DNA of 64,000 nt. It comes from Candidatus Iainarchaeum sp. Its GTDB lineage: Archaea; Iainarchaeota; Iainarchaeia; Iainarchaeales; DTGL01. The position numbers and the translations under genes are program-made. The notes under the pieces were generated by a model, which was given only the letters and a program-made list of their open reading frames with translations, had not been told where the DNA came from and searched no databases. The stretch's first letter is position 1, and every line of letters begins with the position of its first letter. The stretch is taken from the NCBI GenBank assembly GCA_026413945.1, contig JAOAJX010000006.1:20519-84518 (forward strand), given 5' to 3'. This document shows positions 34,512-61,581 of this stretch, one piece after another.

Positions 34512-37500
34512 ATGGGAATAATGAGTTCTTTGCGTGAATTTTATTACCATTTAGAGGATCGCTACTATGAAGTAATAGACAAAATAAGCACTAAAATACC
34601 CATAAACAAATTAACAGATGCTATTGACAAAGTTTTTCCTTCATTTATTCTTTTTATAATACTTTTATTTGTACTTTTAGCAGCTTTAGTGCTTTTTTTA
34701 ATTCCATCCGTGGTAATTCCAAAAGATGTCGCATTAAATGTTTTTGTACAGTATCAAGACAGGTTTGGTGCAAAAAGACCTCTTGAGGGCGCAAAAATTG
34801 AGATAATCGTTGGTGAAAAGGTTCATAGGATAACAACATCAGAAAATGGAAAAATTCAGCCAATAATCCTCAAACCAAAAAGTGAAGTAATACTGCGCGT
34901 TTCAAAGGATGGTTTTAAGCCAAACCCGGCTGAGAAAAGCATAACGATGGAGGATGAAAATGCACAGGTAAGCTTTTTGCTTACAGAGATAATAAAGACA
35001 CAGAGCATTAGCTTCAAGATTATAGATGAAAATACAAAAAGCCCAATAGTGAAGCGCGTATCATTATCATTTGAGTGCTCAAACAAAAAAGCAAATCCGC
35101 CAAAAGCTGCTGAAAAATACACTGATTATAGCGGCAGTATCCAAATAGATGATGTTGAGATTGACTGCTTACCATTGCTAGTAACGGTAAATGCGCAGGA
35201 GTACGAAACAGCAGAAAATGTCAGTGTTAGAGATGGTACCACAATAGCTTTGAGGAAAGTTGTAGAGCTTAAGCCGGTAGAACAAAAGGGCAGGCTAATT
35301 GTAAATGTCACCTTTAGAGGTGAGTTGCCAGAAGAGAATATTATTGTTGATCTTGAAAAGGATACTGGTGCAGCCCCAATTTTTATGGAATCTGGAGTTA
35401 CTAGCAGTGGCCAAGTTGTTTTTGAAGTCTTGCCTGGTAAATACCGAGTAAGAACAAAGGCAACTGCAAATTATAGTGTTGCGGAATCACAATTTATAAA
35501 TGTTGGTGCAAACGAGAATAGGTCAATCAGCTTAGAAATTCAGAAGATAATAATTGGCAGTATAAAGATACAAGTTTTTGATAAAGACAACTCAAAGCCA
35601 TTAGCAAATGCCAGAGTAACATTAATTAAAGATAATACTCAGTTTGCATGCGCAGATACAAATGCTGAAGGCAGAGCTGATTTCCATCTATCCAAAGACG
35701 AAAATTTCTTGCTTGTCGTTGATCATCCTGATTACTGTGTTTATCGCCTTAGAGATGTGAGAAAATCGGATAGCATTCTTAGAATAGGCCTTGTAAAATA
35801 CACTCAAGATTGTGGCGGCTCCATATCAGTAAAGGTTATCGACTTTGAAAAGCGTGCCATTTCAGGTGCAAAGGTTGCTGCCTTTGATGAAAACGGTAGC
35901 AGCCTTGGGCTAAAAGAGTTGATAACAGACATAAACGGCATCGCGGTATTCAAAGGGTTTTATCTCGGAAGATACAAATTCTTCGCATATAAGGGCTTTG
36001 GAAGCAGCTGGAGCGATATTATTGAGTTCTCGCCAAGATTGGGCACTGAACATGAAGCAGTGATCGTATTAAGCATCCCTAAGGCAACTCTAAAACTGAA
36101 AGTAACTAATGATGGTGGTGAAGGCCTTCCATTTAGTGATGTTATTGTAAAAGATGCATACACTGATAAAGTAATAAAGGGGCCACTAAAAATTGAAAAT
36201 ATTGGTGGAGATATTGACATAAACATAGATGCCGGCTTTTCTTTCTATTTGTATATAAACAACCCAGATTACGCACCATACATAAGCGAAAGAATAGTGC
36301 TTAAGCCAGAAGAGCAGAGGCAAATGCATGTAAAGCTTGAGCCAAAGAGAATAAGTGGCGAAATAGCCATTGAATTCTTAGGCCTTTTTAAAGATGGGCA
36401 AAATGCTGTTGTGCTTGCAGCTGGAAAAGAATACATGGCAAAGTTTAAGGTTTCTGTCCCAGAATCTGCACAATATGATAAATTCGGGGTGCATCTACGA
36501 GTTGGAAAATACAATATAATGGAAAAAGACTTCTTGTTCATAAAAGAAATTTATGCTGGCGGAAACCCAAAAATTATTCGGGGCATTTCATATAGCCCAG
36601 AGCAAGGCATGGGTCATGATTTCAGTCTATTGAGCACTGAAAGTGCAAAATGGGTTAATCTTGAATGGACAAGATTGAGTGGTGGCACCATTTATGTTTA
36701 CGCAAAAGTTAAGGTAAAAGAATCCGCATCCTCTGAAGAGCTAAAAGTAATGTGGCGTGCTTGGGGCCTTAGAAAAGGTTTAATGGTAAGAGATCCTGAA
36801 GATATGGCTTTAGGCAATGCTATGAGCGATGCAGAGCTTTATGCGAAAACGTATGAGCGTATTTATAATGTAGGAGAAGAAAAGCTTTGCACAGATAAGT
36901 GGTGCACTGTTTTCAAAGCACTTGATATTGAGGAAAATGTTGCAACATATATTGATGGAAGCTATACTGCAAAAGTTGGAAAACCTTACAAGCTATACTT
37001 TAGTATAGCAAACAGTAGCAAATTTGAAACTGACACTTTTACAAATGTCAAGCTGAAGATATTTAATACTGAAAAAAACATAACCTTTGGAAACTACATT
37101 GTTTATGGAGAAACGGTTGTTAAAGGCAGTGCTAATGCAAATGAAACACCATACATTGAAGTGGGAAATATAAAGCCAAATAATGAAATTCATGGTGAGA
37201 TAGAATTTTCGCCAAAATCAGGCAAATTTGGAAGCATAAATTTACGCTTGCACGATCCAACAAAGCATGCGCACATATTCGAAGAAACCATTGCGGTTAG
37301 CATAATTGCGGCAAGAAACTTCACGATTGACTTTAAGGTTGGTGAAAGCTTTCAGTCAGAGGCGCCTCTGCTGCCAAGCGGTGTTGAGAATACAATTATT
37401 GCTAGAATAAGGGACAAACAATCTGGGCTAGAAGTGTCGGATGCTATAGTTAAGGTTAAGGACTCTACTGGCAACACTATAATACAAACCTTTACAGGCT

Positions 37501-40500
37501 CTTTAGGCCTTGCAGAAATAAAGCTTCCTTCGCTCATGCCAGATGAAAAATTAGTGCTTACTGCAGAAAAGCCAGATTATGAAGAAGCAAGGAAAGAAAT
37601 ACGCACTGATGGAAATGTTATTAATCTTGAGCCAGCAGAGATAGGCCTACAGCTTAATGTTTTCACAAAAAGGGAAGACAGCGTAGTTGTGAGAATCTTA
37701 AACAAAACAGCAATGACGCTCAAGCTTAGGGCAATTAAGCTTTCGGGAGAATTCTATGGAATAATTGACGAGCGGAAAGTTAGGGATTGGCTAGTTGGTG
37801 AATATGTAGGCAAGGAGATAGGGCCCAAAGGTAAGTTAGATATCGCACTAAAGGTTTCGCTAAGCGATTATGGAAAAACTATTAATGAAGTCAAGAACCT
37901 TGAGGGTCTGGTAACAGCAAGCGTCTCCACTTCCTCTGCCTATGGTCACGAGTGGCATGCTGATAGCAAAGTCAAAATCTCTGTTGGAATAGGCGGTGAA
38001 GTTGATGATCCTTCATGCCTTATTGCCAGCATAAAAGAATGGAAAGCAAAAACAAAAAGCAACGAGGTAAGCACTGATTTTTCTGTTAAAAACAACTGCA
38101 CTCTCGAAGGAAAGCCTATAGCACTCAAAAACTTAAGTGCAAAAATTGAGCTTAAAGGCAACCGGCTTGGAAGCTATTATGTGAAAATTGGCGACGTTGG
38201 CATAGAACTAAGCAACGCATACCCTAAAATATTGAAAGGAACTTTAAACCCAGAAGAAACTTTACCTGCCCTATTATCATTTGCTCCAGACGGTGGCATT
38301 GTCGGAACTGCAAAGGCAACTATTATAATAACTGCAGAACATTACACTAATAAAGGAAAGCAGACTTTGAGCACAAGCATAGAGACTGAAATAGAGATGA
38401 TAAGCTTAGAGAATTGTATAAGATATGATAAAAGTCTCATAAGGATAGTTGATCATAACAGTGCAACTTTGAAAATAGAAACTAAAGGTTGCAAGGTGCC
38501 AATTGACTTTATGCTTGATACTAAAATTGCGGTTTCTGAAAAAGAGTTTAACATGAAGGCTGATGATAATAAAGAATTAATAGTAATGCCTTCTCAGGAA
38601 GACATACCTGGACAGTATCCAATATATGTGATGGTAAAAAGTGCTAACGACAGCGAATATTCTTTCAACAAGCTTATAAGGGTAATTATAGAGCCCAAAG
38701 GCTGCTTAAAATTGAACCGCTATGAGTTTGACATATACGACGATGCAAATAACCCATATGATGGCTTTGATACTGCTCTTTTAATGAATGAATGCTATAA
38801 AAGGACTGAAAAGATAAGTATAAGCTATGATGAGCGTGACTGGTGGGAAGCAATAAAAACCGGCGCAGTATGGGGCCTTGTAGGTTTTGTCTATGGTGGC
38901 GTAAGGTCACTTGCAGCAGGCAAAACTTTCTTTGGCACAGAAAGGCCTTCTAATGTTTGCAGCAAAGCAGGCTATAAATACTGTGGAACTAAAAATCTAT
39001 GCAAAGATGAACGTGTAGTAGTAGTTAATAATGTAACATGCTGTGCATCCGAGTGCATAACAGAAGAAACAGGTCTTCATAAAGACATTTGCAGCAAAAA
39101 AGGGTATAATTACTGTGGCGCAGGCAATTGTGATTTAACACAAGGTAAAGAGACGGTAGTAGATGGGGTTGTATGCTGCACAGGTAAATGTAAAACAGGA
39201 ACTATTGAGAAACCTGAAAATATTTGCAAGTCGGCAGGCAAATATTTCTGCAAGACTGACGAAATATGCCCAGATGCAGCATACGTTGTTGTTGGTGATG
39301 TAACATGCTGTGGAAAACCATGTGCAAAAGGTCAGATTGCTAAGCCACCGATAACTCAGCCAACAACAGCAACTGTAAAACCACCTTCAGGACAAAAAAC
39401 AGACGAAGAACTATGTAAGGAATATTATCCAAATTCGCGCAAAATTACTTCTCAGGAAGAGTGTCACCCAAATTGTACATTTAGCAGACAAACTGCGGAA
39501 AGGTTAGTGAAATGTTGCAAGAATGACTGCACCGGCACAGAAAAGCCACCAACTGATGGTACAACAGAGGGGGGAAAGCCACCCTCTGAAACAGGCGCAC
39601 CTATTGAAGGACCAACCATACCAGATTGCTACAACACTGAGCTTGAATGTGCTGCAAAGGCATGGAAAAAGACAACTTTGCTTACTGGTGGTTGTGACTG
39701 CTATGCAGCAATAAATTGCATATATGACGAGTTTGGAAAGTGTTATAGGTTTGGGTATTGTAATAACAGCAAATGCACAACTCAAGGCACGACAGGCCCA
39801 AGTGAGCCCGTGGAAGGAGAATGTAAAATAGAGGGTTATTTCTGTAAAGGAACGGTAATGTATTGGAGAGATAGTTGCGGAAATGAAGGCATACAGATGG
39901 ACTGTGCAGAATCTGGTGCCATATGTGAAGCTGGAAATTGTGTATTACAGGAAGGTTGCAAACTTGAAGGTTACTTCTGTCAAGGAACTGTTTTACATTG
40001 GAAAGATAGCTGTGGTAATACGGGTGTTGAGAGAGACTGTGCAGATGCTGGAGGAATATGTCAGAATGGGAATTGTGTTGCTGCTGAAAGTGGTTGCCAG
40101 CGCATTGGTTACTTCTGTCAAGGAACTGTTTTACATTGGAAAGATAGCTGTGGTAATACGGGTGTTGAGAGAGACTGTGCAGATGCTGGAGGAATATGTC
40201 AGAATGGTAATTGTGTTGCTGCTGAAGGCAGCAGCAGTGGTACCACTCAACCGCCTTCAGGCGATGTTTGTATTGGTTGCCATGAAACATTGTCCAAATG
40301 CCAAAAAGCTAATGGTGCAGGCATCGCTAGGATATGTGATTGTGAGCTTGCTGTTACATGTGAATATGTGCCATCTTGTTCTGTAGCAACGCCGTGCTAC
40401 AGATTCAAGAGCTGTAACAACAGTTTTTGCTCTTTAGGTAGTAGTGGAAGAAAAATGAATGAGGAAGGTATGATAAGAAAGGTTGTCGCTGCCAATTCTT

Positions 40501-42992
40501 CACCAGGCTTTGCAATTGGCTTATTTAGCTTGGAAAGCATCACAAACATCTTTAAAGGAAATATAGACATTTTGGGAAGTTTGCTGAAGATTGATGATCC
40601 ATGGACTGGGGCATTGATTGGCTTTATAGCTGGCACACTATACACTTACTGGCAGCAGAGCCAAAATGTTGGCGTGCTCCAGATTCCTGTTGCTGTAAGA
40701 GACCTAAACATATTGGAATTAAAGCTTCTAATACAAAAAGGTCTTGAAGAAGAGATTGAAAACAAGATCATCGTGGAAAAGGGCAAAGCCAAGATTGAAA
40801 ACCCACCAGAAAAGCCATTGGGCATTGAGAAGATTGAAATTGTGTTCAAAAACAATGGCATAAAGCAAGAAGATATATACAAGCCAATATACCGCATACT
40901 AAAAGTGAATGGAAGCAAAATGGAATATCAGACTGACTACAATACAAAGAAAAAGAAAGATGCTGAGGCAATGAAGAAAATGGAGCCATCAGTGATTGGC
41001 AGCGAAGAGTATATACAGAAATTCCATCTGCAGTTCAATTCGTACAAGGCAAAACCAACCAAACCGGAAGTGAGACCTGAAGTAAGCTGCAAAGTTGGTG
41101 GTCTCATTGGCTCAACAGGGAAAGAAGCATTGCCAAAGATTAAGCTTTCATGGAACTGGAATGATATTGCAATTAATGAATGTGATGAAAGCGGAATCGG
41201 CAATTACTGCGATGCAACACAATTTAGCATAGAATTACTTAAGAAGTTAAAAAGAATTGACGAACTGCTCAGAGGCCAGAAATTAAAGTGCCCTTCGGCT
41301 GAAGGCATACTTAGTGAAAAAACACAGGAATTGGATAATCTTAAGTTGGACGTCGCAGTTACAAAAATAAGAGTTGAAAAAAGTGGATTTAATGCAACAG
41401 TTATTGGAACCATAGCAAGCAATAACAAGCAAGAGATGACAGTAAATGCATTTTTGTCTGTTTCCAAAGGTGGAAATACAATAAACTGCCCAGAAGGTGA
41501 AAAAGCAGTAAAGGTTATTGACAAAACCGAAGTAACATGCGTCTTTAACAACCTAGAAGAAGGCCTTTATGATGCTATGGTCAGGATAAGCCCTCAGCTA
41601 ACAACATGTAGTGGGTCATGCAAAAACGAAAATTTAGGCAATGACACTATAAGCACAAAGTTCGCTGTTGGCACAACAGCAGGGATATTTGAAAAATGTG
41701 AGCCATACAGTACTGAACGCCTCCCAGATTTTATAGCAGCAAACCCAAACAATGCAAGTCTTAAAGAAGCATTATCACTTACAAACTTCAACGCATACCT
41801 TATGCAAGATGGTTACACCTTGGACTTCAGAAAGGATTTCCATGAGTTCTCAGAAACTAAAGATTTCTTCAGCACCCCTTCTTGGTACAAAGGAGACATC
41901 GGCATAGGCAAGTATTTCTCAAGTGCAGCGCTCTTTGAATTTAAATCTCCATTCCTGAGACCTGAGTCAGGCTACCTACCAGCAGGCAAGTACAATGTTA
42001 GGATAAAAATTGATTATAATAATGGATCTTGGTGCTTGTTTGAAGGCACAATTCCAAATGCAAGAATAGAAGTAATTTTTGAGCGTTTAGATACGCCCGA
42101 TCCAGATTCTGTGTTTTATTATATGCCATTTAACGGTCTTGTTGGTGTTGATAGCCAAAACGGGCGGCAGGGCTATGGAATAAACTTCAGGCAAAAATCA
42201 GAGGAAACCATAAAAATAAATGAAGATGTGAAACAGCCAATAAGAACTACCACAATTGCAAACTCAATACCAATACCAAATGGCTGGGTTGAAGCCCGCG
42301 TTGTTAAGGATTTCAAAACATTGCATGGTGATACGCCTGGTGTTGTGCTCGAAATTGAAAAAAGCACAGCTGGCTTGAATATGGTATATAGCCCAAGTGT
42401 AGCCACACCGCTTTTGCTAAAAGTTAGTGGTGGTGAGAGAAAGAACGCTTATGCATTTTACCAGCTAACAATAAACAACAGACCACAGGAAGCCTCAAGT
42501 AGCTTGTTCTCATGGAGTGGCCTTGTAAAAGGCTGTAAGGACTTCACTGATGCTGAAGTTACAGAAGCATTTAACTACAGGCGTGATATACGCGGAGGTG
42601 TTGGCAAAACTCAATGTGCAGGCAGCTTTTCAACACATCAGTATGGCGTAGAGTGGTGCAACATTAAGAGGCAAGGAGATGTATTCCTGAAAACAATTCT
42701 ATTCACACCACAAGAGAGTGTAGCTTTGCTCGAAATTGTAAGCTCTTCCGACAAAGCAGTGTTCATAAGCCCAAAAGGCACTGGCAATCGCATAGAAACC
42801 GGTGGCATCGAAGGTGCAACAATTACATCTGTAGAGAAAATACTTAAGCTTGTGGAAGAGAAGAAAGTGTGTGTTGCCGGCCTTGGAAGCAATAGCAGGG
42901 CAACATTCTTCTGGAATCAGCAACAGCTTATAGATGCTGCATTTAAAAACACGATAGAAAGCATACCTTCACAATGCATAAAAAGTAGCTGA
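34512..42992 (+). CDS. Giant membrane-anchored surface protein C (2826 aa) with Cys-rich repeat insert
   Basis: Same architecture: KWVNLEW, RDPEDMALG, LYAKT, NYCDATQ, YYMPFNGLVG, VCV...FWNQ, plus a roughly 500-aa Cys-rich insert. Confidence 0.85.
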   Translation: MGIMSSLREFYYHLEDRYYEVIDKISTKIPINKLTDAIDKVFPSFILFIILLFVLLAALVLFLIPSVVIPKDVALNVFVQYQDRFGAKRPLEGAKIEIIVGEKVHRITTSENGKIQPIILKPKSEVILRVSKDGFKPNPAEKSITMEDENAQVSFLLTEIIKTQSISFKIIDENTKSPIVKRVSLSFECSNKKANPPKAAEKYTDYSGSIQIDDVEIDCLPLLVTVNAQEYETAENVSVRDGTTIALRKVVELKPVEQKGRLIVNVTFRGELPEENIIVDLEKDTGAAPIFMESGVTSSGQVVFEVLPGKYRVRTKATANYSVAESQFINVGANENRSISLEIQKIIIGSIKIQVFDKDNSKPLANARVTLIKDNTQFACADTNAEGRADFHLSKDENFLLVVDHPDYCVYRLRDVRKSDSILRIGLVKYTQDCGGSISVKVIDFEKRAISGAKVAAFDENGSSLGLKELITDINGIAVFKGFYLGRYKFFAYKGFGSSWSDIIEFSPRLGTEHEAVIVLSIPKATLKLKVTNDGGEGLPFSDVIVKDAYTDKVIKGPLKIENIGGDIDINIDAGFSFYLYINNPDYAPYISERIVLKPEEQRQMHVKLEPKRISGEIAIEFLGLFKDGQNAVVLAAGKEYMAKFKVSVPESAQYDKFGVHLRVGKYNIMEKDFLFIKEIYAGGNPKIIRGISYSPEQGMGHDFSLLSTESAKWVNLEWTRLSGGTIYVYAKVKVKESASSEELKVMWRAWGLRKGLMVRDPEDMALGNAMSDAELYAKTYERIYNVGEEKLCTDKWCTVFKALDIEENVATYIDGSYTAKVGKPYKLYFSIANSSKFETDTFTNVKLKIFNTEKNITFGNYIVYGETVVKGSANANETPYIEVGNIKPNNEIHGEIEFSPKSGKFGSINLRLHDPTKHAHIFEETIAVSIIAARNFTIDFKVGESFQSEAPLLPSGVENTIIARIRDKQSGLEVSDAIVKVKDSTGNTIIQTFTGSLGLAEIKLPSLMPDEKLVLTAEKPDYEEARKEIRTDGNVINLEPAEIGLQLNVFTKREDSVVVRILNKTAMTLKLRAIKLSGEFYGIIDERKVRDWLVGEYVGKEIGPKGKLDIALKVSLSDYGKTINEVKNLEGLVTASVSTSSAYGHEWHADSKVKISVGIGGEVDDPSCLIASIKEWKAKTKSNEVSTDFSVKNNCTLEGKPIALKNLSAKIELKGNRLGSYYVKIGDVGIELSNAYPKILKGTLNPEETLPALLSFAPDGGIVGTAKATIIITAEHYTNKGKQTLSTSIETEIEMISLENCIRYDKSLIRIVDHNSATLKIETKGCKVPIDFMLDTKIAVSEKEFNMKADDNKELIVMPSQEDIPGQYPIYVMVKSANDSEYSFNKLIRVIIEPKGCLKLNRYEFDIYDDANNPYDGFDTALLMNECYKRTEKISISYDERDWWEAIKTGAVWGLVGFVYGGVRSLAAGKTFFGTERPSNVCSKAGYKYCGTKNLCKDERVVVVNNVTCCASECITEETGLHKDICSKKGYNYCGAGNCDLTQGKETVVDGVVCCTGKCKTGTIEKPENICKSAGKYFCKTDEICPDAAYVVVGDVTCCGKPCAKGQIAKPPITQPTTATVKPPSGQKTDEELCKEYYPNSRKITSQEECHPNCTFSRQTAERLVKCCKNDCTGTEKPPTDGTTEGGKPPSETGAPIEGPTIPDCYNTELECAAKAWKKTTLLTGGCDCYAAINCIYDEFGKCYRFGYCNNSKCTTQGTTGPSEPVEGECKIEGYFCKGTVMYWRDSCGNEGIQMDCAESGAICEAGNCVLQEGCKLEGYFCQGTVLHWKDSCGNTGVERDCADAGGICQNGNCVAAESGCQRIGYFCQGTVLHWKDSCGNTGVERDCADAGGICQNGNCVAAEGSSSGTTQPPSGDVCIGCHETLSKCQKANGAGIARICDCELAVTCEYVPSCSVATPCYRFKSCNNSFCSLGSSGRKMNEEGMIRKVVAANSSPGFAIGLFSLESITNIFKGNIDILGSLLKIDDPWTGALIGFIAGTLYTYWQQSQNVGVLQIPVAVRDLNILELKLLIQKGLEEEIENKIIVEKGKAKIENPPEKPLGIEKIEIVFKNNGIKQEDIYKPIYRILKVNGSKMEYQTDYNTKKKKDAEAMKKMEPSVIGSEEYIQKFHLQFNSYKAKPTKPEVRPEVSCKVGGLIGSTGKEALPKIKLSWNWNDIAINECDESGIGNYCDATQFSIELLKKLKRIDELLRGQKLKCPSAEGILSEKTQELDNLKLDVAVTKIRVEKSGFNATVIGTIASNNKQEMTVNAFLSVSKGGNTINCPEGEKAVKVIDKTEVTCVFNNLEEGLYDAMVRISPQLTTCSGSCKNENLGNDTISTKFAVGTTAGIFEKCEPYSTERLPDFIAANPNNASLKEALSLTNFNAYLMQDGYTLDFRKDFHEFSETKDFFSTPSWYKGDIGIGKYFSSAALFEFKSPFLRPESGYLPAGKYNVRIKIDYNNGSWCLFEGTIPNARIEVIFERLDTPDPDSVFYYMPFNGLVGVDSQNGRQGYGINFRQKSEETIKINEDVKQPIRTTTIANSIPIPNGWVEARVVKDFKTLHGDTPGVVLEIEKSTAGLNMVYSPSVATPLLLKVSGGERKNAYAFYQLTINNRPQEASSSLFSWSGLVKGCKDFTDAEVTEAFNYRRDIRGGVGKTQCAGSFSTHQYGVEWCNIKRQGDVFLKTILFTPQESVALLEIVSSSDKAVFISPKGTGNRIETGGIEGATITSVEKILKLVEEKKVCVAGLGSNSRATFFWNQQQLIDAAFKNTIESIPSQCIKSS
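38955..39325 (+). repeat. Three tandem approx. 35-45-aa Cys-rich protein repeats (C.K.G..YC....C......VV..V.CC...C)
   Basis: VCSKAGYKYCG...VTCCASEC; ICSKKGYNYCG...VVCCTGKC; ICKSAGKYFCK...VTCCGKPC. Coordinates approximate. Confidence 0.8.
39834..40226 (+). repeat. Tandem coding repeat: two 120-bp copies (39969-40088 and 40107-40226, period 138 bp, one synonymous mismatch) plus a diverged copy from 39834
   Basis: Direct comparison of the DNA: GYFCQGTVLHWKDSCGNTGVERDCADAGGICQNGNCVAAE twice, differing only at GGG/GGT. Confidence 0.95.
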
Positions 42993-43015
42993 CGCAATTA
43001 CTAACAGGGATAGTT

Positions 43016-46000
43016 GTGGAAATCGAAGAAATTGAAGATGAGGAAAATATAATCTATAGGATAAAGGAACGTTACATCGCTTTTTGTGAAAAAAACAAAA
43101 TACCAAAAGCACTTCCTATTTTAGTTGCAATAATTCTTATTTTAGCATTAGCTTATATTCTTTTTTTTAGTGCAAATCCGCAGCCGAAGCCAAAAGAATT
43201 TAGCTTAATAGTATATTTTAGAGATGAAAAAGGTGCTCCGGTAAGCGGACTTGATGTTAATGTAACAATAAATGGTGAAAAGACACGCAGAAAAACAGAC
43301 AGCAAAGGAAAAATTTCTATTACCGTGGATGAAAACAGCAATGTAAAGATTTCGTTGAGAGAAACTCTTTACCTTGATGGTGAATGGACTTTCAAAATAA
43401 GCGAGGATACTGAAAGAACAATAACATTAAAGCTAAGGGAAAAGCCACTTGAGAAGATTATAGTTCGCTTTGAAACAAGCAAGGGGTCAACAAAAGGAAA
43501 ATATGTAAAAGTGACGCTTAGCTGCTCAAATAAGGCCATTAATCAATGGGATGAGTTTGATTCGGATAAGGATGGCATTATAGAAATTACATTGCCGCTT
43601 GATTGTGGTGAAGTCAAAGTTGAAAATGCAGAGCTTGAAAACCATTTATTTGAGCGCACATTTAAAAAGGGAAAGGACATTTTTGTGACATTTAAAGAAA
43701 TAGAGATACCCAAGGGAACATTGAGGGTAAAAATAGTAGATGATAAAAAAGAGCTTATACTTAACAAAAACATAACAGTCAGCATTGAAAGGGATGGTGA
43801 AAGAAAAAGCTCGTTTACACAAGGTTATGGAATAGTTGAATTTTCTAATCTTATGCCTGGAAGTTACAATGTTTATGCAGTTGACCCCGAGCAAAGCTAC
43901 TCTGCGTCAAATACAAATGCAATAGTCAAGGCTAATGAAACTACTGAAGTATTTTTGGCTTTGAGCAGAAACATCAGTGCGATGCTTCTCATAAGAACAA
44001 TTGATATGAAAACACTTGGTGCTATCGAAGGCGCAACAGCAAAGGTTATTAAAAATGGCAACACAATGGTCGAAGAGATAACAAAAGAAAATGGCATTGC
44101 TAGGGTACCTCTTTTCGATATGGGTTCTTATGTTATAGTTGTGAAAAGAGATGGTTATTTCCCAAAGAAGATTGACTTTAATGTTACATCAGCAAGCGAA
44201 TCTGTGACTATTGAGCTCGAAAGAATTACGGAAGAAAATATGGGCAGGACTTTTGTAAAAGTTGTTGATGAGGAAGGCATGGCTGTTAAAGACGCAAAAG
44301 TGATTTTCAAATATAAGGAAACTGGCGCAATTGTTGAACTGCAATCAAAACAAAATTACGCGCTTACAGACGAAAATGGCACAGCAGAATTTGTTCTTGG
44401 AGCCATAAATTCTGATGTTTATCCGTTTGCAATCAAGTACCCGGCTTTTGGTGGGTCGCCAGCGCAGGCAAAAAAGATAATTCCTGACGAGAACAATTAC
44501 TTTGAGGTTATCCTTAAGGTTGGTAAAAGCAAAATTAAAGTAATGGCCAAAGATTCCGAGGGAAAGCCTTTGAATGAGGCATACTTTGAAGTTTTCTCAT
44601 CATTTGACCATAATTCAGTAACAAAAGGAAAAATGTTGATAATTGACGGCATGACGGAATATGAAATTAAGGCAGCCCAAAGTGTCTATGTGGTGGTAAG
44701 CAAAGAGGGATATATCAAATATAAAAGCAGAATATTGCAGCTCTGGCCAAATGAGGAATATGAAATAAACGCTGTTTTGCTAAAAGAAGGCGAGGTTGCT
44801 AAGCCAAAAATTGAGTTTTTAGGTATTTTTGATGGAAATCTCGTTGCCTCTGCACTTAAAGCGGGCAGAACTTATGTTGTTAAGTTTAATGCCTATTTTC
44901 CTAAAGGTTCATCAAAGAATGGCTTTCACTTTAGAATTGGTGAAAACCAAGACGCTAACTTAGAACCGGCCTTTATAAAGTTTGTGAATGCAAAAGGTGC
45001 TAAAGTAAAGATTGGGCTCACGTATAGGCCGCCAAAATCAGAGAGCATAGAAGAGCTTGCACCCACAGGAGGGAAATGGGCTTCTATAGAGTGGGATTCA
45101 AATGAAACGGGCACATACGAGTTATATTTTGAAATTAAAATTAAGGAAAATGTGAAACCAAGGACAGTCATATTATTTTATTATAGAAGCTATGCTATTT
45201 TTGATAAGGCTGTGACAAGAGAGCCGTTTGATGAAGAGCTTGGTGAATTACTTAGCACTCAATCTAAAGATGGCCTTTACGCTAAAGCCCACAAGTTACA
45301 ATTTTATGAGGGTTCTGAGAGTGCCTGCAAAGAGCTATTTTGCATTTCTGGCTACTGGCTATATGACGCGCAAGAAGACATTTTCCTCAAGGAACCTTAT
45401 TCTGTGATGCTATTTGGTGACTATAACTTTTTGTTCGATATAATTAACAATTCGCAAAATGATTACAACAAAATAATTTTGATAGTAAAGAATACTATAA
45501 ACAACAGGCAAGATAATGCTTTGGCTTTTGAAAGCTTGGTTATTTCAATACCAGCTGGTCAAAAAGAGCTTAAGCCAAAAGATAACGAATTTAAGGAAGA
45601 AGTAATGCCTTTTTCATATAGTGAGCAGCTAAAAGGCAATGTGAAGTTCAAAGGCAGGATAGAAATAACTACGAACATAGCTGTTGAAATTGTTGCTGAT
45701 CGCTACGTTGTTTTTTCAAAAAGCATTCCTGTAAAAGTATACTCTGCTGGAAAGCTCGATGTTAACATTCAACCGAATGCCTTTTTGCCATTTGCAAGCC
45801 ATGACTTAAAAATAATGGTTAGAGATCAAAGCAAAAGCCCGATTAAAGGTGCTTTGGTTACTGTTCGAAGAACACACGATGATGGTACCGATGAGACCTT
45901 GCAAGAAATCACAGATAACAATGGGCTTGTTTCATTCAAAATAAAGGAGTCGTTTCCAAAAACCAAAATAGAGGTTCTCGTTGAAAAAATGGGCTATGCG

Positions 46001-49000
46001 CCTTTCAGATGGGAAAAAAGTGTTGATGGAAATATTGCGAAAATAACACCTGAAAGCATAAGTGTTAATCTCAATACTGATTCGAAAACCCAGGAAAAAA
46101 TAATTTTGAGTATTGAAAACAGAGTCGGCTCAGATTTGTTGGTTAAAAGTGCAAGGTTTACAGGGGGCTTCAATGGCATACTTGACGAAGCCTCGATGAA
46201 CGCCAACGCCACAACAATTGTTGGAAAAACTATAAAAACCAAAGACCAGCTTGACTTTGCCTTAAATTTTTTGCTTTCGCAAAATGCAGAAGATTTGATG
46301 CAAAGCAACGTAGATCTTAATGGCGCAATCGAGATAATAGTTTCAGTGCCAAGATTTGGAGCTGATTATGCCTTAGTGGTCCCTTTTAAAGCAAAAGTCT
46401 CTCTTGGTGGGCTCCCGGAAAATGCGCCTTGTATTTCTCTCTCTGGACCAAATGTGCCTGACTGGAGTGTTGCCACAATAAATGACACTGCAAGGACAGA
46501 AGTAAAAATATCAAATATTTGCATAAGCAACGGGAAGCCCATTGACCTTGAAAATTTGCAAGCAAAGCTTACATGGGCTTCAGGATCAAAAAAAGCAGGA
46601 AGTATTGAAATAAGCATAAATTCTCCTGATGGCTCAACTGTAACTAAAATACTCAAGCCTGGCATATGGACAAAATTATTTGATGGTTTTAAAAACGAGT
46701 TGAATTCTGGAACATATAATGCTGTTATAACATTCAAGCCTCTGCCAGACTATGCTGGAGAAACAGCAAGCTTTACAATTGAAATAGACGGCCAGACAAA
46801 AACAGACAAAGGCCTCGCTTTTGTAGGTTCTGATTCTAAAATAGAGGCGAAAATACTAATAATTGATCTCAAAGGATGCATAAAGTATCCAAAAGAAAAA
46901 ATAACCATAAAGCCAAACGAGAAAGAAGCAAAAATAAAAATAGATGCAAATGGCTGCAACACGAACATATCTGTATGGCTCTGTAAGGATGATCCAAAGT
47001 GCCGCGGTGGTACCGAAGAAGGCGGCATAACTTTGATACCTTATGAAGAGCTTAAGTTTACAAAAACAGAAACATCAAAAAGTGTTACAGTATATAGGGA
47101 GCAGATTGCTGGCCAATATGGCATAACAGTCCATGCAAAAGCACCGGATATGGATTATCAGCAAATAGGTACAATAGATGTTGTTGTTGAGCCAACAGAA
47201 AGAGAATACTTTAGCATGAGCAGATATGAGTTTACGCTAACTAATTCAACAAACTGGAAAGATTCCACAGACTTGATAAATAAAATGTGGGTTGAAGATG
47301 TAAACATAACTGCAAAGCTCTGCACAGCTTGCCAAAATCCGAAAAAGCTGCCAGATTATTGCATAATGAACAGAGCTCTTGAAAAATCAACATTGGACAA
47401 GCCAGACTGGTGGGTAAATGTAGCAATATCATTAGGTGTAGGATTAACAGCTGGTGCTGGATGTGCTATTGCTGCTGCCGAAGCAAAAATTGTAGACCCG
47501 ACAGCTTTGATAATAATAGCTGGTGCTTGCTTCCTTGGCTCAGCTCTAGCAACATATTTTACAATTTCTGGTGCAGAATGCGATGTTCAAATGGCCACAT
47601 ATCCTTTTATGGACTATGTTGTAAACTTACCTGACGATTTGAAAGGCCTTAAAGTAATGGGCAAACCTTATGACGTAAATTTAGGAAGTGATGAAAGAAG
47701 CAGCTATAAGAAAAGAGAGCAGATATTGCCAATAAGCTTCGAAAATAAGGGCAAAGATTCTTCGGACAAAAGTGGTTATGGCATACTAGAAATAAAAGCA
47801 ATCGAACACATTCATGGAGATCCAACACATACAAATCCTAAGATGGAAAGAAACAAAGCTGACTTTGGATTATTCAACGTTCCAGACACTGAAACTAAAG
47901 AATACTCGCAAAAAATCCACTTAAGGTTTATCACAAATGCAAACTTTAGCGAAAAGCTTACAAAGGCAGGGGCAGAAACAAAATCATGCAGCATCGGGAC
48001 AAAAAGCGGTTTTACTGGTGATGGGCTTGTTCCAAAAATAAAGCTCGATTGGAGTTGGAAAACAATTGAATGGAATTTTTGCGATGCTGACAATGAAAAC
48101 GCAGCATACTGCGATGCGGTGCAGCATAGCATAGCCCTTACAAAAAGGTTAAAAATGCTTGATGACTTTTTCAAGGCAAACAATTACTCATTTGAATGCC
48201 CTGCTCACCCTAAGAATAAGGCAACACAAAGTATAATTGATAGCACTAATGAAAAGGAATCTTCAAGGTCTGTCAGTATTGGAAAAGTTGGCGTTTCAAA
48301 AGTTGAGTATTCTGCAAACAATATCAGTTTAAGCGTTGTTTTAAGAGCAATGGTAGAAAACAAAACTGCAGATGAGCAAAGCACAAAGATAAAATTCTTG
48401 CTTAAAAACCAAGCTCTTGCAAAAGAGTGCGAAAAAGAAACTATTGTTGGCTCGAATTCGAGTGTAACGGTTGAGTGCTTATTTGAGAATTTGGTTGCTA
48501 ATGATGACCCGTATTTTGGTTCTGCTGCTGCTGTTGATTCTAGCAAAGGAAATGCTGATAAAAAAGCAGTTACTGTTGCTTTTGTACTCCAGAGCAAGAA
48601 TAGCGATTGTTGGTTGCCCTATTCCACTAGAAAGATTGAAGGTAAACCTGCTTTGCTTTATTTCATAGACAGAAATATAAGAAACTGGGGCAACTATGTA
48701 AATGTAAAAGAGATAAATTGGCCAGCTGGCTGGCCTGGCTCTAATGCCCAGGAAAAGATAGCATTCCTTGAGAAGCTTATTGAGTTCGATACATTGTTAG
48801 TAAGGGACGCATATCCTAATAGTTTGAAAAGCGATTTTGTAGAGCATTACACAAAGGAGACCTTTATGGATGTGCCAACATGGTTTAGTGGAAGCTCCGG
48901 CTTTAAAGAGTATTTCTTAGATAAAGACGCTATCGAATTTGAGACAGGTGACAGCACAAAGAAGCTTCCGGGGCCTGGCAAGTACAGAATTTTCCTTGAA

Positions 49001-49906
49001 ATTAACTTCAATAACAACTTTGCATTCTTCAGAGAAGGGAAAACAAACGCAAAAGTAAGAGTAAAGTATTCAAAAATATCCAGCCCAGAACCTGACTCCT
49101 TATTCTACTACTGGCCTATTGACGGCGAAGTTGGGCTTAAAACAGGGCGTAACGGGTATGGAAGCACATATGAGAATATCAATAAACCAATTATCATTGG
49201 ATCTTATGGTGGGAGAGAGCTTAAAACAGATTCGAAGAGCAGTAATGCTCTCGTGAAAGTTTCTACAAATATTGTCGATAAATTTGAGTATGTTAATACA
49301 GATCCTAAGACAAGAGGCAACCTCTTAAGCGCAAAAATTTCTGAAAATGGGCTTTCCATTAATTTTTCTCCTAACACGGCATCTTTTGTAATAATGAAGG
49401 TTTCAAACAATGAAGAAAACCCAATATATGCAAAATATCAACTCTTTAGTGGTGGGGCAAAGATCAATTGCGGTGACACATTAGCATATTGGGCTGGAAT
49501 TGGGAATTGCACTTCATTTTCTGGTGAGCCAATTAAAGAGATTAAAAACCAGCCTGATGAACATTTCGGGGAAAGCACTTATGGTTTACAGTGGCCAAAC
49601 AATGGCAAAGCAAGTAGCGTTTACCTAAGCACTATTTTATTTGTACCATCTAATAAGGAGTTTGAATTGCGTTCAGCATCTAGAAATGTCATTTTCTTGG
49701 ACAAGGAGCTTAGCCAAAATGCATCTTACAACCTGAAATCAACTCATAGCCATGCGGTACGCTCAATAGACGAACTATTAAACATGATGAAGCAGGGGCT
49801 TCTTTGTGTTTCTGCTGAAAGTAATGAGATGCAAATATGGTGGAACCCTGAAAGCACTGATTACAGCACAGCAGCTGAAATACTTTCAAAAAGGGGCTGT
49901 AGCTAG
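43016..49906 (+). CDS. Giant membrane-anchored surface protein D (2296 aa)
   Basis: Same architecture: KWASIEW, REPFDEELG, LYAKA, AYCDAVQ, YYWPIDGEVG, LCV...WWNP, and an internal hydrophobic hairpin. Confidence 0.85.
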   Translation: MEIEEIEDEENIIYRIKERYIAFCEKNKIPKALPILVAIILILALAYILFFSANPQPKPKEFSLIVYFRDEKGAPVSGLDVNVTINGEKTRRKTDSKGKISITVDENSNVKISLRETLYLDGEWTFKISEDTERTITLKLREKPLEKIIVRFETSKGSTKGKYVKVTLSCSNKAINQWDEFDSDKDGIIEITLPLDCGEVKVENAELENHLFERTFKKGKDIFVTFKEIEIPKGTLRVKIVDDKKELILNKNITVSIERDGERKSSFTQGYGIVEFSNLMPGSYNVYAVDPEQSYSASNTNAIVKANETTEVFLALSRNISAMLLIRTIDMKTLGAIEGATAKVIKNGNTMVEEITKENGIARVPLFDMGSYVIVVKRDGYFPKKIDFNVTSASESVTIELERITEENMGRTFVKVVDEEGMAVKDAKVIFKYKETGAIVELQSKQNYALTDENGTAEFVLGAINSDVYPFAIKYPAFGGSPAQAKKIIPDENNYFEVILKVGKSKIKVMAKDSEGKPLNEAYFEVFSSFDHNSVTKGKMLIIDGMTEYEIKAAQSVYVVVSKEGYIKYKSRILQLWPNEEYEINAVLLKEGEVAKPKIEFLGIFDGNLVASALKAGRTYVVKFNAYFPKGSSKNGFHFRIGENQDANLEPAFIKFVNAKGAKVKIGLTYRPPKSESIEELAPTGGKWASIEWDSNETGTYELYFEIKIKENVKPRTVILFYYRSYAIFDKAVTREPFDEELGELLSTQSKDGLYAKAHKLQFYEGSESACKELFCISGYWLYDAQEDIFLKEPYSVMLFGDYNFLFDIINNSQNDYNKIILIVKNTINNRQDNALAFESLVISIPAGQKELKPKDNEFKEEVMPFSYSEQLKGNVKFKGRIEITTNIAVEIVADRYVVFSKSIPVKVYSAGKLDVNIQPNAFLPFASHDLKIMVRDQSKSPIKGALVTVRRTHDDGTDETLQEITDNNGLVSFKIKESFPKTKIEVLVEKMGYAPFRWEKSVDGNIAKITPESISVNLNTDSKTQEKIILSIENRVGSDLLVKSARFTGGFNGILDEASMNANATTIVGKTIKTKDQLDFALNFLLSQNAEDLMQSNVDLNGAIEIIVSVPRFGADYALVVPFKAKVSLGGLPENAPCISLSGPNVPDWSVATINDTARTEVKISNICISNGKPIDLENLQAKLTWASGSKKAGSIEISINSPDGSTVTKILKPGIWTKLFDGFKNELNSGTYNAVITFKPLPDYAGETASFTIEIDGQTKTDKGLAFVGSDSKIEAKILIIDLKGCIKYPKEKITIKPNEKEAKIKIDANGCNTNISVWLCKDDPKCRGGTEEGGITLIPYEELKFTKTETSKSVTVYREQIAGQYGITVHAKAPDMDYQQIGTIDVVVEPTEREYFSMSRYEFTLTNSTNWKDSTDLINKMWVEDVNITAKLCTACQNPKKLPDYCIMNRALEKSTLDKPDWWVNVAISLGVGLTAGAGCAIAAAEAKIVDPTALIIIAGACFLGSALATYFTISGAECDVQMATYPFMDYVVNLPDDLKGLKVMGKPYDVNLGSDERSSYKKREQILPISFENKGKDSSDKSGYGILEIKAIEHIHGDPTHTNPKMERNKADFGLFNVPDTETKEYSQKIHLRFITNANFSEKLTKAGAETKSCSIGTKSGFTGDGLVPKIKLDWSWKTIEWNFCDADNENAAYCDAVQHSIALTKRLKMLDDFFKANNYSFECPAHPKNKATQSIIDSTNEKESSRSVSIGKVGVSKVEYSANNISLSVVLRAMVENKTADEQSTKIKFLLKNQALAKECEKETIVGSNSSVTVECLFENLVANDDPYFGSAAAVDSSKGNADKKAVTVAFVLQSKNSDCWLPYSTRKIEGKPALLYFIDRNIRNWGNYVNVKEINWPAGWPGSNAQEKIAFLEKLIEFDTLLVRDAYPNSLKSDFVEHYTKETFMDVPTWFSGSSGFKEYFLDKDAIEFETGDSTKKLPGPGKYRIFLEINFNNNFAFFREGKTNAKVRVKYSKISSPEPDSLFYYWPIDGEVGLKTGRNGYGSTYENINKPIIIGSYGGRELKTDSKSSNALVKVSTNIVDKFEYVNTDPKTRGNLLSAKISENGLSINFSPNTASFVIMKVSNNEENPIYAKYQLFSGGAKINCGDTLAYWAGIGNCTSFSGEPIKEIKNQPDEHFGESTYGLQWPNNGKASSVYLSTILFVPSNKEFELRSASRNVIFLDKELSQNASYNLKSTHSHAVRSIDELLNMMKQGLLCVSAESNEMQIWWNPESTDYSTAAEILSKRGCS

Positions 49907-49956: not shown

Positions 49957-50373
49957 ATGCTTTGGCTTACTTTATTGAATATTTTGCTCTTTTGGGAAAT
50001 AATTTCAGATTTTATGCTGGTTCTTAAAATTTTTGCGATTATAACTATAATCTCTTTTGTTCTAAACCATGTGGAAAGCAAGCCGCTTGCCGCAATACTA
50101 ATAGTTGCGATATCTTGGTTTGTGGTATTTGAATGGTGGCAATTCTTTGGTGGAATATATCTCTTATATACGCTCATAACGCTAGGTATAAGCGGCATGC
50201 TTGTTGACTTCTTTTTCATTAGTGGTATGGCAGGAGATCGTACACCTCAGCAAGTAGCTGATGATAATTCACCGGTTAGCTCCTCATTGGACTTGGCCCA
50301 AAGAAAAGAAAGATTAGAGGCTGCAAGGCGCATACATGCAATGAAAAAAAGGCCCGGGGGTATGATGAGATGA
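49957..50373 (+). CDS. Small integral membrane protein
   Basis: About 3 hydrophobic helices and a basic tail; AAGGTG upstream; overlaps the next gene (ATGA). Confidence 0.75.
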   Translation: MLWLTLLNILLFWEIISDFMLVLKIFAIITIISFVLNHVESKPLAAILIVAISWFVVFEWWQFFGGIYLLYTLITLGISGMLVDFFFISGMAGDRTPQQVADDNSPVSSSLDLAQRKERLEAARRIHAMKKRPGGMMR

Positions 50374-50690
50374 GCCAGAGGGGAATTCACCTGATGGTGC
50401 TTATATTTGTAGCTCTTTTTGTATTGCTTCTGCTACCGCCGATAATAATGGCTATTTTTAAGCCAGCAGACTTGTTAATAAGGATACTGTTGACAATAAT
50501 GATATTTGCAACGGTTAGAAACATGCTTGGCTCAAATGCACTTACAATTGTAATAAGCAGCGTGTTAGTGTATATACTAGTCATAAAATATGCTCCAATA
50601 ACTGCTTCACTTTATATATTCTTTTTTGTGCTGTTAGCTTACAACTTTATAGCTGCTGTAATGTGGGGGCTTACAAGGTTGCCAAGGTAA
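50370..50690 (+). CDS. Small integral membrane protein
   Basis: 106 aa, almost wholly hydrophobic; translationally coupled to the previous gene. Confidence 0.75.
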   Translation: MSQRGIHLMVLIFVALFVLLLLPPIIMAIFKPADLLIRILLTIMIFATVRNMLGSNALTIVISSVLVYILVIKYAPITASLYIFFFVLLAYNFIAAVMWGLTRLPR

Positions 50691-50736: not shown

Positions 50737-51192
50737 ATGGTTGAAGAAAGATTATCAGAATCGAGACCGATTAAAACATCTACGCTTTTGATGCAAATTA
50801 TGGAAGACGTGAAAGCACTAAACAGCGCAGTTTCACTTATTTCCCAAAAGATGAGGCACATTGCTAGAAATGAGAAAATACTTGGAAGAAACATAATCGT
50901 ACTAAACAAAAAGATAAAGGAAATTGCTGAAAGCGGTGCTAACCAAGCAATACCTGAAAGCTTGATAAAGAGAATTGAAGATATTGAAAAAAATTTGGAT
51001 GATACAAATAAAAAGATCGAGGAAATAAATGTTGTTGTGGCTCATTTACGCAAAGAGTTTGTAAGCCACGGCGAATTCAATGAGCTGAAGCAAATAGTAG
51101 ATGCTATAAACCCTTTAGAACTTGTAACAATAGATCAAGTAAAGGAAATTGTTGGTCAAAGCCAAAAAAAGAGTCAGTCAGTGGGTTTTTAG
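50737..51192 (+). CDS. Hypothetical coiled-coil protein
   Basis: Heptad-rich 151 aa with a C-terminal INPLELVT motif. Confidence 0.75.
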   Translation: MVEERLSESRPIKTSTLLMQIMEDVKALNSAVSLISQKMRHIARNEKILGRNIIVLNKKIKEIAESGANQAIPESLIKRIEDIEKNLDDTNKKIEEINVVVAHLRKEFVSHGEFNELKQIVDAINPLELVTIDQVKEIVGQSQKKSQSVGF

Positions 51193-58978: not shown

Positions 58979-59050
58979 GACCCTGTGGTGTAGTGGACAG
59001 CATAGCAGCCTGCGGAGCTGCTGACCCGGGTTCAAGTCCCGGCAGGGTCA
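58979..59050 (+). tRNA. tRNA-Arg(GCG)
   Basis: Acceptor GACCCTG/CAGGGTC, anticodon arm GCAGC-CTGCGGA-GCTGC, T-loop TTCAAGT. Confidence 0.93.
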
Positions 59051-59056
59051 TACAAA

Positions 59057-59377
59057 TTAACAAGGAACTTTTTCAGGATTTGGATTTGTCTCATTGGCAG
59101 GAGTCCAGCATACGCAGTTTTTACAGATTCCTATGCACTTAAAATCTCCTCCGCTGCACGATGCTCCAGGCGGACACAGGCCTGTTTTTATGCCTATGCA
59201 TTCGCAGCTTTTCTGCTGACCACCATAGGCAAACCAATGGCCACACTCGAAGCCAATTGGAATGTATGGCAAAATAAAAACCGCAAAGGCAACTATAGCC
59301 AAAAGCACTATGCCAATAACAACATAGCTTTTTTTCGAGAAAAAAGATATCTTCTGTTTTTTCTCTTTATTTTCCAT
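59057..59377 (-). CDS. Small membrane-anchored Cys-rich protein
   Basis: Basic N-terminus, TM helix, then about 10 Cys in about 60 aa; GAGGTG SD upstream. Confidence 0.75.
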   Translation of the reverse strand: MENKEKKQKISFFSKKSYVVIGIVLLAIVAFAVFILPYIPIGFECGHWFAYGGQQKSCECIGIKTGLCPPGASCSGGDFKCIGICKNCVCWTPANETNPNPEKVPC

Positions 59378-59799: not shown

Positions 59800-59810
59800 T
59801 TTTAGGTGTT

Positions 59811-61563: not shown

Positions 61564-61581
61564 TATATTATTTATCTTATT

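Follow-up and report, generated by a model that had tools for sequence, protein, structure and literature searches.

Giant D is a 2296-amino-acid envelope protein encoded on a stretch of 64,000 nucleotides (the window; G+C 35–42%) from a small archaeon, Candidatus Iainarchaeum sp. of the Iainarchaeota (DPANN). Far along its chain, between the last Ig-like domain of its stalk and a beta-rich head, it carries a compact hydrophobic hairpin. In giant C, the paralogue encoded immediately 5′ of D, the equivalent site holds a long insert between two weaker helices. This mid-chain site is a variable insertion hot spot, in which the inserts are mostly unrelated to one another, and it is the fastest-evolving part of the protein. 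The current proposal, held tentatively and at somewhat less than an even chance, is that the hairpin of D is integrated by the Sec machinery as a second tether in the cell’s own membrane, with a turn that is permissive to insertion, and that in the C-type form the cargo is exported and the helices serve as a neck or clasp.

Hydrophobicity is expressed here as KD19, the best Kyte–Doolittle mean over 19 residues (KD15 is the same over 15). The sequence-only reading of the window had described an Asp-Trp-Trp motif in D followed by a compact hydrophobic hairpin at about 47402–47581, and both are present, at 47405–47560 (coordinates of all features are collected in Table 2). The hairpin lies some 1415 residues from the N-terminal anchor, closer than the 1450 or so first estimated, and its two helices are the sole segments of D besides that anchor with KD19 of at least 1.6. 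Thus, D has what defines a transmembrane helical hairpin: two segments of about 19 residues at this level, joined by a short turn. Small-xxx-small motifs ([GAS]xxx[GAS]xxx[GAS]) occur on both helices, as expected of a glycine zipper, with four overlapping copies on helix 1 and one on helix 2. The helix pair is unlikely to have arisen by chance. When D without its anchor was shuffled 2000 times, two non-overlapping windows with KD19 of at least 1.85 within 60 residues were obtained in 17 shuffles; a single such window was found in 1062 and is not rare. A hydrophobic helix pair recurs at the equivalent site in relatives, and the aromatic-rich entry is also seen in many of them.

The Pfam matches of D (CarboxypepD_reg, Big_1 and MG4) are confined to its N-terminal 1000 residues. 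In the head, an alignment (A1) revealed invariant and near-invariant cysteines. A motif of the type His-x-His-Gly-Asp-Pro-x-His, located at 47800–47900, approximately 100 residues past helix 2, is a possible metal site; D-type heads conserve it and C lacks it.

By sequence comparison, the flanks of the site in C and D are homologous. BLASTP alignments are colinear on either side of it (residues 12–1413 of C with 14–1413 of D, and 2108–2804 with 1571–2279), and hidden Markov models (HMMs) of the flanks built from D match both proteins. The Asp-Trp-Trp motif stands at residue 1443 of C (nucleotide 38838), as in D. The earlier description of C, with the same flanks and two helices near 38835 and 40600 more than 500 residues apart, is borne out, with the helices starting at 38841 and 40599 and about 560 residues between them. 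At KD19 values of 1.22 and 0.81 the helices are below transmembrane grade and, being this far apart, do not form a transmembrane hairpin of the kind seen in D. Helix 1 of C has three small-xxx-small motifs; none was found for helix 2 in a scan of residues 2001–2040, which reaches only the start of that helix. In orthologues with 40–86% identity over the aligned segment, helix 1 is nearly identical and helix 2 is also conserved.

The variability of the site was surveyed across the family. The last 997 residues of D retrieved 532 cluster representatives (50% identity) at E ≤ 0.001, of which 222 were at E ≤ 1e-30. The flank HMMs were run on 161 proteins, comprising the best 150 of the 532 representatives, further search matches, and C and D. 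Both flanks were found in 132 of the 161, and 105 were well anchored, meaning that the downstream match starts at model position 15 or earlier; this rule excludes the C-type proteins, which lack the first 30–50 model positions. Among the 105, the shortest stretch between the flanks has 12 residues and the longest 865; in P0161 and P0162 this stretch extends to about 1000. The hairpin is absent in seven of the 105. Hairpin-less forms have either Trp-rich linkers of 12–33 residues or a single hydrophobic, Gly-rich segment, about 30 residues long, with a proline at its centre; the 38-residue linker of the hairpin-less P0088 is neither Trp-rich nor Gly-rich and hydrophobic. A cysteine is present at the downstream junction in 94 of the 105 relatives.

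BLAST comparison of 59 long inserts gave six clusters of 2–11 members and 26 singletons, with a low-complexity filter that may hide homology. On a FastTree phylogeny of 101 downstream domains, built without the C-type proteins and with four long-branch joins flagged, 18 changes among four length classes were counted, where the minimum possible is three and the shuffled mean is 41. Well-supported branches force at least five changes to or from the long class and at least six for the class without a hairpin. The proposal that this is a variable insertion site is upheld by the 12 to approximately 1000 residues that it accommodates, by its mostly unrelated inserts and by the 18 changes of state; the survey of loop content in orthologues that had been suggested with it was run and found diverse inserts. 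As a separate observation, helix 2 begins with a Cys-x(2-3)-Cys motif in 14 of the 51 relatives with short spans. The motif is accompanied by proline in 13 of these (P0009, P0010, P0018, P0023, P0027, P0034, P0047, P0060, P0066, P0073, P0084, P0085 and P0087) and lacks it in P0012.

The insert of C contains 60 cysteines (11%) among 548 of its approximately 560 residues. As it holds a single CxxC, its composition argues for disulfide knots, as opposed to zinc ribbons. It had been described as consisting mostly of Cys-rich repeats. The richness in cysteine is evident, but clean repeats make up only part of the insert: a set of three modules that follows helix 1, and another three of 46 residues each, of which two share 99% DNA identity. 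Tandem Repeats Finder reports the latter as a recent tandem duplication, which shows that the number of modules is changing now. Besides C, 12 C-type orthologues were found. In the nine proteins parsed, C included, the inserts span 179 to 745 residues at 9.4–10.8% cysteine, while both helices are almost unchanged; this range at so constant a composition indicates variation in the copy number of Cys modules. No Pfam family matches the C insert at E ≤ 1, and a sequence search of the PDB gave three antibody chains only, at chance level (E 0.19–0.81). The density of N-glycosylation sequons is uninformative (0.91 per 100 residues in the insert and 0.83 in the rest of C).

Other inserts differ in kind. 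The approximately 1000-residue insert of P0161 contains an fn3 domain (27.2 bits, cut-off 25), the one case among 21 long-insert proteins scanned. A Big_2 domain in the same insert was a first impression that Pfam did not confirm. Further classes are rich in Ala, Gln, Ser and Thr with 5–9 cysteines, or, in several relatives, in Thr, Ser and Asn. The cargo thus appears to be of extracellular type, with none recognisable as a cytoplasmic domain.

The hydrophobicity of the two helices was surveyed in 98 proteins with a span of at least 40 residues (Table 1). The longer the span, the lower the hydrophobicity, with a Spearman rho of −0.74 for helix 2 and −0.61 for helix 1. Such a fall would be required by an exported loop and is not required by a cytoplasmic one, and it therefore counts in favour of exported cargo. 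Among relatives, helix 2 reaches a KD19 of 3.15. The notion that long-insert forms are more amphipathic than short ones was not upheld. The median moments of the long-insert forms (0.64 and 0.49) do not differ clearly from those of the 51 short forms (0.46 and 0.54), and only helix 1 of C, at 1.27, stands out.

Table 1. Hydrophobicity of the helix pair by length of the stretch between the flanks
Span (residues)	Proteins	Median KD19, helix 1	Median KD19, helix 2	Helix 2 ≥ 1.6	Both helices ≥ 1.6
40–135	51	1.55	2.23	47	23
135–240	5	1.34	1.78	3	0
240–450	28	1.04	1.22	5	2
≥ 450	14	0.30	0.27	0	0

Stalk and head must share one side of the membrane throughout the family, because hairpin-less members exist, the helices of long-insert forms are below transmembrane grade and the head has invariant cysteines. 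This rules out a single crossing at the site: the chain crosses twice, dips in or stays out. In 50 short-span relatives, the 15 residues past helix 2 contain 21.3 Asp and Glu and only 3.2 Lys and Arg per 100 residues, and this acidic, Lys/Arg-poor stretch fits an end of helix 2 outside the cell.

The site was also modelled with AlphaFold2 (AF2). For residues 1290–2296 of D, with 55 aligned sequences, the mean predicted local distance difference test score (pLDDT) is 86.2 and the predicted TM-score (pTM) 0.80. Model residues 178–231, the hairpin, are the only stretch of three or more residues with pLDDT below 50 (block means 31–39). Helices are predicted at model residues 176–199 (blocks at pLDDT 31–51) and 206–221 (pLDDT 31–39), and the hairpin of D appears in this model unpacked and not placed on the protein body. 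The model of C (residues 1290–2489, 34 sequences) has a mean pLDDT of 70.1 and a pTM of 0.38. Helix 1 (model residues 155–179) has pLDDT 74–83 and helix 2 (741–761) approximately 80, while in the insert the Cys modules reach 56–89 and the linkers fall below 50. Foldseek searches of both models against the PDB found only generic Ig-like, PapD-like and macroglobulin-type beta-sandwiches at query TM-scores of about 0.05–0.11. A Pfam search with the last 897 residues of D gave nothing at E ≤ 1 beyond two weak, chance-level rows. In the ESM Atlas, a 76-residue piece with the D hairpin pointed to glycine reductase selenoprotein A clusters; with a best score of 0.79, below the 0.9 at which a match is taken as a lead, these were discarded. 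A complex prediction with four copies of the D hairpin segment (A1 residues 160–232), run without controls, gave no answer (score 0.01 against a mark of 0.42) and carries no weight for or against.

The anatomy, the flank homology, the cargo types, the variable nature of the site and the trend in hydrophobicity are established, and from them a membrane, a topology and a pairing of the helices can be proposed. Between the final Ig-like domain of the stalk and the beta-rich head, the site would form an element for membrane contact that is specific to the lineage and evolves fast. Its short forms, D among them, would consist of an uncharged helical hairpin of 45–70 residues, with a helix 2 that may be hydrophobic enough for capture by the Sec translocon. 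This hairpin would be integrated in, or dipped into, the producer’s own membrane during Sec export and would act as a second tether near the head, with both large flanks outside and the turn on the inner side. The turn would be structurally permissive and would collect insertions. Once an exported module had been inserted, selection for transmembrane-grade helices would be relaxed or reversed and everything would be exported, which would explain the inverse relation of hydrophobicity with length. The Gly/aromatic helix pair of the C-type form would then be a probable neck, or a clasp lying on the surface, with the cargo on the outer side like the remainder of the protein. Segments as hydrophobic as the short-form helix 2 are integrated by the Sec translocon, and a long hydrophobic stretch that turns midway inserts as a helical hairpin. 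It is this knowledge of the translocon, together with a transmembrane-grade and uniformly hydrophobic helix 2 and an AF2 model in which the hairpin has no protein partner, that points to the cell’s own membrane in the case of D.

Several observations weigh against the second-tether proposal. The turn region is nearly uncharged and has no positive-inside signature (3.7 Lys and Arg per 100 residues in the 50 short-span relatives, and 8.8 in the upstream flank), so that a cytoplasmic turn is not shown. Helix 1 is marginal, as only 23 of the 51 short-span relatives reach a KD19 of 1.6 in it, and rough free-energy sums are positive. What the AF2 model of D conveys is pLDDT and secondary structure, and not the direction of the hairpin; the pLDDT of about 80 in the helices of C is compatible with packing on protein rather than lipid. 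A second tether also seems redundant, given that the N-terminal anchor is kept in 83 of 91 relatives and the hairpin is lost in seven of 105. Finally, passing from a turn that faces the cytoplasm to an exported insert requires a change of topology, several times on the tree.

The same hairpin could instead act in trans. The sequence-only reading had suggested that the hairpin could insert into the membrane of a host and present the loop cargo on the far side. For the forms that bear cargo this could not be sustained: their helices are weak (1.22 and 0.81 in C), the cargo is of extracellular type and no host is established. A version limited to short forms, in which a head held out on its stalk lets the hairpin enter another cell’s membrane from outside for attachment, pore formation or fusion, in the manner of fusion peptides or toxin hairpins, appears rather doubtful. 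Its turn is short and uncharged, as passage through a bilayer would need; the Trp-rich linkers of 12–33 residues in hairpin-less forms are another signature of the membrane interface; AF2 leaves the hairpin unpacked; the phylum belongs to DPANN, and a type IV pilus-like ATPase and platform are encoded nearby. Viral fusion peptides are Gly/Ala-rich, and the Gly/Ala-rich helix 1 resembles them. Yet a helix 2 with KD19 of up to 3.15 should be trapped in the producer’s membrane during Sec export, the AF2 model has no shielding helical bundle around the hairpin, and the element has been lost or weakened many times on the tree. As far as the accessible parts of the literature go, no host is established for Iainarchaeota. 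Candidatus Iainarchaeum andersonii may live independently, according to the accessible part of a review (PMC6349945), and it carries the giant family (locus L028), with three paralogues. A more elaborate scheme, in which D-type proteins would contribute a trans-acting, fusion-peptide-like hairpin and C-type proteins a fast-diversifying, disulfide-rich recognition module, the two forming a phylum-wide contact or fusion apparatus served by the neighbouring pilus-type ATPase and platform, is quite improbable.

Two further explanations would keep the helices out of any membrane or give them no task. The hairpin may be buried in protein, as the oligomerisation core of a lattice or complex of the giants (homo-oligomers or C–D hetero-oligomers), and never touch lipid. 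The C and D genes keep their order in 29 of the 69 giant-bearing loci, paralogues that differ in site state coexist within genomes, small-xxx-small motifs favour tight packing of helices, and the helices of C are conserved among orthologues and modelled at a pLDDT of about 80. Soluble bundles usually have one polar face, however, and uniformly hydrophobic helices of low moment (0.16 and 0.40 in D; medians of 0.46 and 0.54 in the 51 short forms) are typical of lipid exposure. Seven of 105 relatives do without the element, and overall this explanation is doubtful. It is fairly improbable that the site has no specific role and is a tolerated inter-domain linker, drifting in length and composition, with hydrophobic stretches as by-products. 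Extreme variability in length and sequence (26 singletons among 59 inserts), complete loss in seven of 105 relatives and the recent repeat duplication within the C insert would all suit such drift. It would leave unaccounted the hydrophobic or aromatic character kept in 47 of 51 short forms, C-type helices far better conserved than the insert between them, the junction cysteine in 94 of 105 relatives and a two-window pattern found in only 17 of 2000 shuffles.

The family appears essentially restricted to Iainarchaeota. Of 201 candidate stretches in species-representative genomes, 198 were confirmed, and the analysis retained 73 loci. The record titles of these loci name Iainarchaeum or Diapherotrites in 29 cases, an “archaeon” in 42 and something else in two (L032 and L040). 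The last two come from bins labelled Chloroflexi bacterium and Thaumarchaeota archaeon, and are probably mis-binned contigs, as the family is otherwise uniformly distributed. A C-like open reading frame (ORF) stands immediately 5′ of a D-like ORF in 29 of the 69 related loci with giants. The genomes of L003–L073 usually encode first a C-like protein, in which weak helices enclose a long insert, and then a D-like protein whose hairpin is short and of transmembrane grade; a third paralogue, whose insert has about 285–295 residues and six cysteines, is sometimes next. Paralogues with different site states often co-occur, and in the locus of Ca. Iainarchaeum andersonii the three have spans of 252, 70 and 295 residues. 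Whatever the site state, an N-terminal anchor comparable to that of D is present in 83 of 91 complete-looking relatives, and the eight others look like truncated gene calls. The idea that the hairpin substitutes for the N-terminal anchor in some members was ruled out, since these 83 keep it. In titles and abstracts on DPANN giant or surface proteins, Iainarchaeota and glycine-zipper hairpins, with subscription papers and supplements outside the scope, no description of this family was found.

Within the window, four giant ORFs (A to D) lie head to tail on the + strand. Each encodes a short cytoplasmic stretch followed by a single strong hydrophobic anchor at the N-terminus. The N-terminal halves of the giants contain CarboxypepD_reg, Big_1, SpaA and macroglobulin-type Ig-like domains, and their C-terminal 800 or so residues match no Pfam or NCBIfam family. 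The flank HMMs of C and D have no significant match at the equivalent place in giants A and B, and the site is not common to them. Giant A has its own pair of hydrophobic segments at about 23430–23570 (residues 2066–2112; KD19 up to 1.89), which is not homologous to the C/D site. In all four giants, the stretch that precedes the anchor is acidic and aromatic with a terminal Ile-Pro-type motif; this common stretch may be a targeting signal for the adjacent ATPase and platform.

Table 2. Features of the giant genes, of the site in C and D and of the neighbouring region (nucleotide positions in the window)
Feature	Position	Strand	Remarks
FlaI/TadA-like ATPase	10717–12996		upstream of the giants
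Weak T2SSF-like platform protein	13009–15366		upstream of the giants
Exosortase/archaeosortase-family protein	16511–17161	+	immediately 5′ of giant A
Giant A	17232–25310	+	ORF
Giant A, N-terminal pre-anchor stretch	17232–17420		
Giant B	27118–34437	+	ORF
Giant B, N-terminal pre-anchor stretch	27118–27280		
Giant C	34512–42992	+	2826 residues; paralogue immediately 5′ of D; long-insert (C-type) form
Giant C, N-terminal pre-anchor stretch	34512–34710		
C helix 1	38841–38915	+	residues 1444–1468; amphipathic, aromatic/Gly-rich; KD19 1.22, moment 1.27
C insert	38916–40598	+	about 560 residues; Cys-rich modules and Pro/Thr-rich linkers
Recent tandem duplication in C insert	39969–40226	+	138-nucleotide unit, 1.9 copies, 99% identical; Tandem Repeats Finder
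C helix 2	40599–40661	+	residues 2030–2050 (motif start at residue 2028, nucleotide 40593); Gly/aromatic-rich; KD19 0.81, KD15 1.17
Giant D	43016–49906	+	2296 residues; N-terminally anchored envelope protein; short-hairpin (D-type) form
Giant D, N-terminal pre-anchor stretch	43016–43170		
D N-terminal membrane anchor	43112–43168	+	residues 33–51; KD19 3.03
D last beta-sandwich domain before the site	46883–47326	+	residues 1290–1437; AF2 model residues 1–148 all strands, block pLDDT 80–96; within flank HMM U
D Asp-Trp-Trp entry motif	47405–47413	+	residues 1464–1466
D helix 1	47414–47479	+	residues 1467–1488; Gly/Ala-rich, uncharged; KD19 1.85, hydrophobic moment 0.16
D turn	47480–47503	+	8 residues; position of inserts in relatives
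D helix 2	47504–47560	+	residues 1497–1515; uncharged, transmembrane-grade; KD19 2.02, moment 0.40
D C-terminal head	47561–49903	+	beta-rich domains, conserved Cys, no Pfam family
Small multi-pass membrane ORFs	49957–50373, 50370–50690		between D and the 50737–53469 genes
Genes 3′ of D	50737–51192, 51189–52694, 52819–53469	+, −, +	two coiled-coil-like

The product of the gene at 16511–17161 matches TIGR04178 (35.1 bits, cut-off 23) and Pfam Exosortase_EpsH (26.6, cut-off 25.7). The tripartite C-terminal signal of archaeosortase substrates was found on none of giants A–D, with C and D ending in polar sequence. Among the 105 relatives scanned, no segment with KD19 of at least 1.9 occurs beyond the N-terminus and the site, and they do not look like archaeosortase substrates. 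The C-terminus of the ORF at 2–4294 (+; 5′-open, 1430 residues) consists of a motif, a hydrophobic helix and a basic tail, and this ORF looks like a candidate substrate with a sorting signal. The three genes 3′ of D (50737–51192, 51189–52694 and 52819–53469) adjoin D-type genes in 27, 29 and 38 of the 73 related loci, respectively; no Pfam family matches them above cut-off, a single weak, sub-threshold SlyX row being all that was returned. The window also encodes PAC2, a family B DNA polymerase and His-tRNA synthetase. Genes for tRNA-Arg (GCG), Leu (CAG), His (GTG), Thr (GGT) and Met (CAT) are located at 58979–63138 among housekeeping genes. The TTG listed as the start of the His-tRNA synthetase ORF (59775) falls within the tRNA-His gene (59728–59800), and the true start of this ORF probably lies further downstream.

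The family is large, unnamed and phylum-wide, and its C–D pair takes up approximately 15 kb in genomes of about 1 Mb. The site offers a testable handle on how these uncultured Iainarchaeota build their envelope or touch other cells, and it would be a natural example of the turn of a membrane hairpin serving as an insertion platform. Should the hairpin enter the membrane of a partner, it would represent a novel type of contact device in archaea; as a second tether only, it would still provide a useful annotation for an undescribed family of envelope proteins.

Comparable elements exist in several known systems. Colicin pore domains, the diphtheria toxin T domain, type III translocators and viral fusion peptides likewise have an uncharged hydrophobic helical hairpin or a Gly/Ala-rich segment within an extracellular protein that is otherwise soluble, and the Trp-rich variants of the site resemble membrane-proximal regions. 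No sequence relation to the toxin and translocator hairpins was found, the sole row being Diphtheria_T at E = 1.9 for one homologue piece, and Foldseek returned only Ig- and macroglobulin-type folds. These hairpins are shielded by a helical bundle, whereas the flanks here are predicted to be beta-sandwiches, and the export of the giants is presumably Sec-dependent and passes through the producer’s own membrane. The resemblance to class I viral fusion machinery, in which heptad-repeat coiled coils follow the fusion peptide and priming is proteolytic, goes no further than a Gly/Ala-rich helix 1 and, in some relatives, inserts rich in Ala, Gln and Thr. Judging by titles and abstracts, DPANN archaea and ultrasmall bacteria have other giant surface proteins that are likewise very large, carry many Ig-like domains, come from small genomes and are believed to mediate contact at the surface. 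No relation of these to the Iainarchaeota family is apparent at that level, and the family differs in a head of about 800 residues without a Pfam or NCBIfam family or a convincing PDB fold.

The closest likenesses are with membrane hairpins. Glycine-zipper two-helix domains (Rick_17kDa_Anti or “glycine zipper 2TM”, Gly-zipper_Omp and Gly-zipper_YMGG) likewise consist of two short Gly/Ala-rich helices with a tight turn in the membrane. The accessible part of one report describes SlyB, a bacterial lipoprotein, as carrying the “glycine zipper 2TM” domain (bioRxiv 10.64898/2026.06.08.730324). The hairpin of D had been called a glycine zipper; the small-xxx-small repeats on its helices bear out the name, but D matches no Gly-zipper Pfam model. 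For a 72-residue hairpin piece, GNVR at E = 0.14 was the one match, and no Gly-zipper family (PF05433, PF13488 or PF13441) appeared at E ≤ 10; the last 897 residues gave no Gly-zipper match at E ≤ 1. One of eight homologue hairpin pieces reaches a cut-off (Gly-zipper_Omp, 30.3 vs. 25), and three give sub-threshold rows. These families are small bacterial outer-membrane lipoproteins and differ from an anchored archaeal envelope giant of 2296 residues, in which helix 2 is usually of a plain aliphatic, transmembrane type and the turn takes inserts of up to about 1000 residues. The context here (PAC2, family B polymerase, an archaeosortase-family gene and Iainarchaeota relatives) is archaeal and not that of a bacterial lipoprotein.

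In Sec-inserted helical hairpins, or re-entrant anchors, of polytopic or monotopic membrane proteins, a hydrophobic stretch of 45–70 residues turns back near its middle at Pro, Gly or small residues, and both flanks stay on the same face of the membrane. The hairpin of the giants is like them in its length, its central turn and its same-side flanks. It differs in a turn without a positive-inside signature, in its position between two very large exported regions and in homologues that switch among transmembrane-grade, weak and absent states. By analogy, the element would work most like the glycine-zipper two-helix domains and these Sec-inserted helical hairpins.

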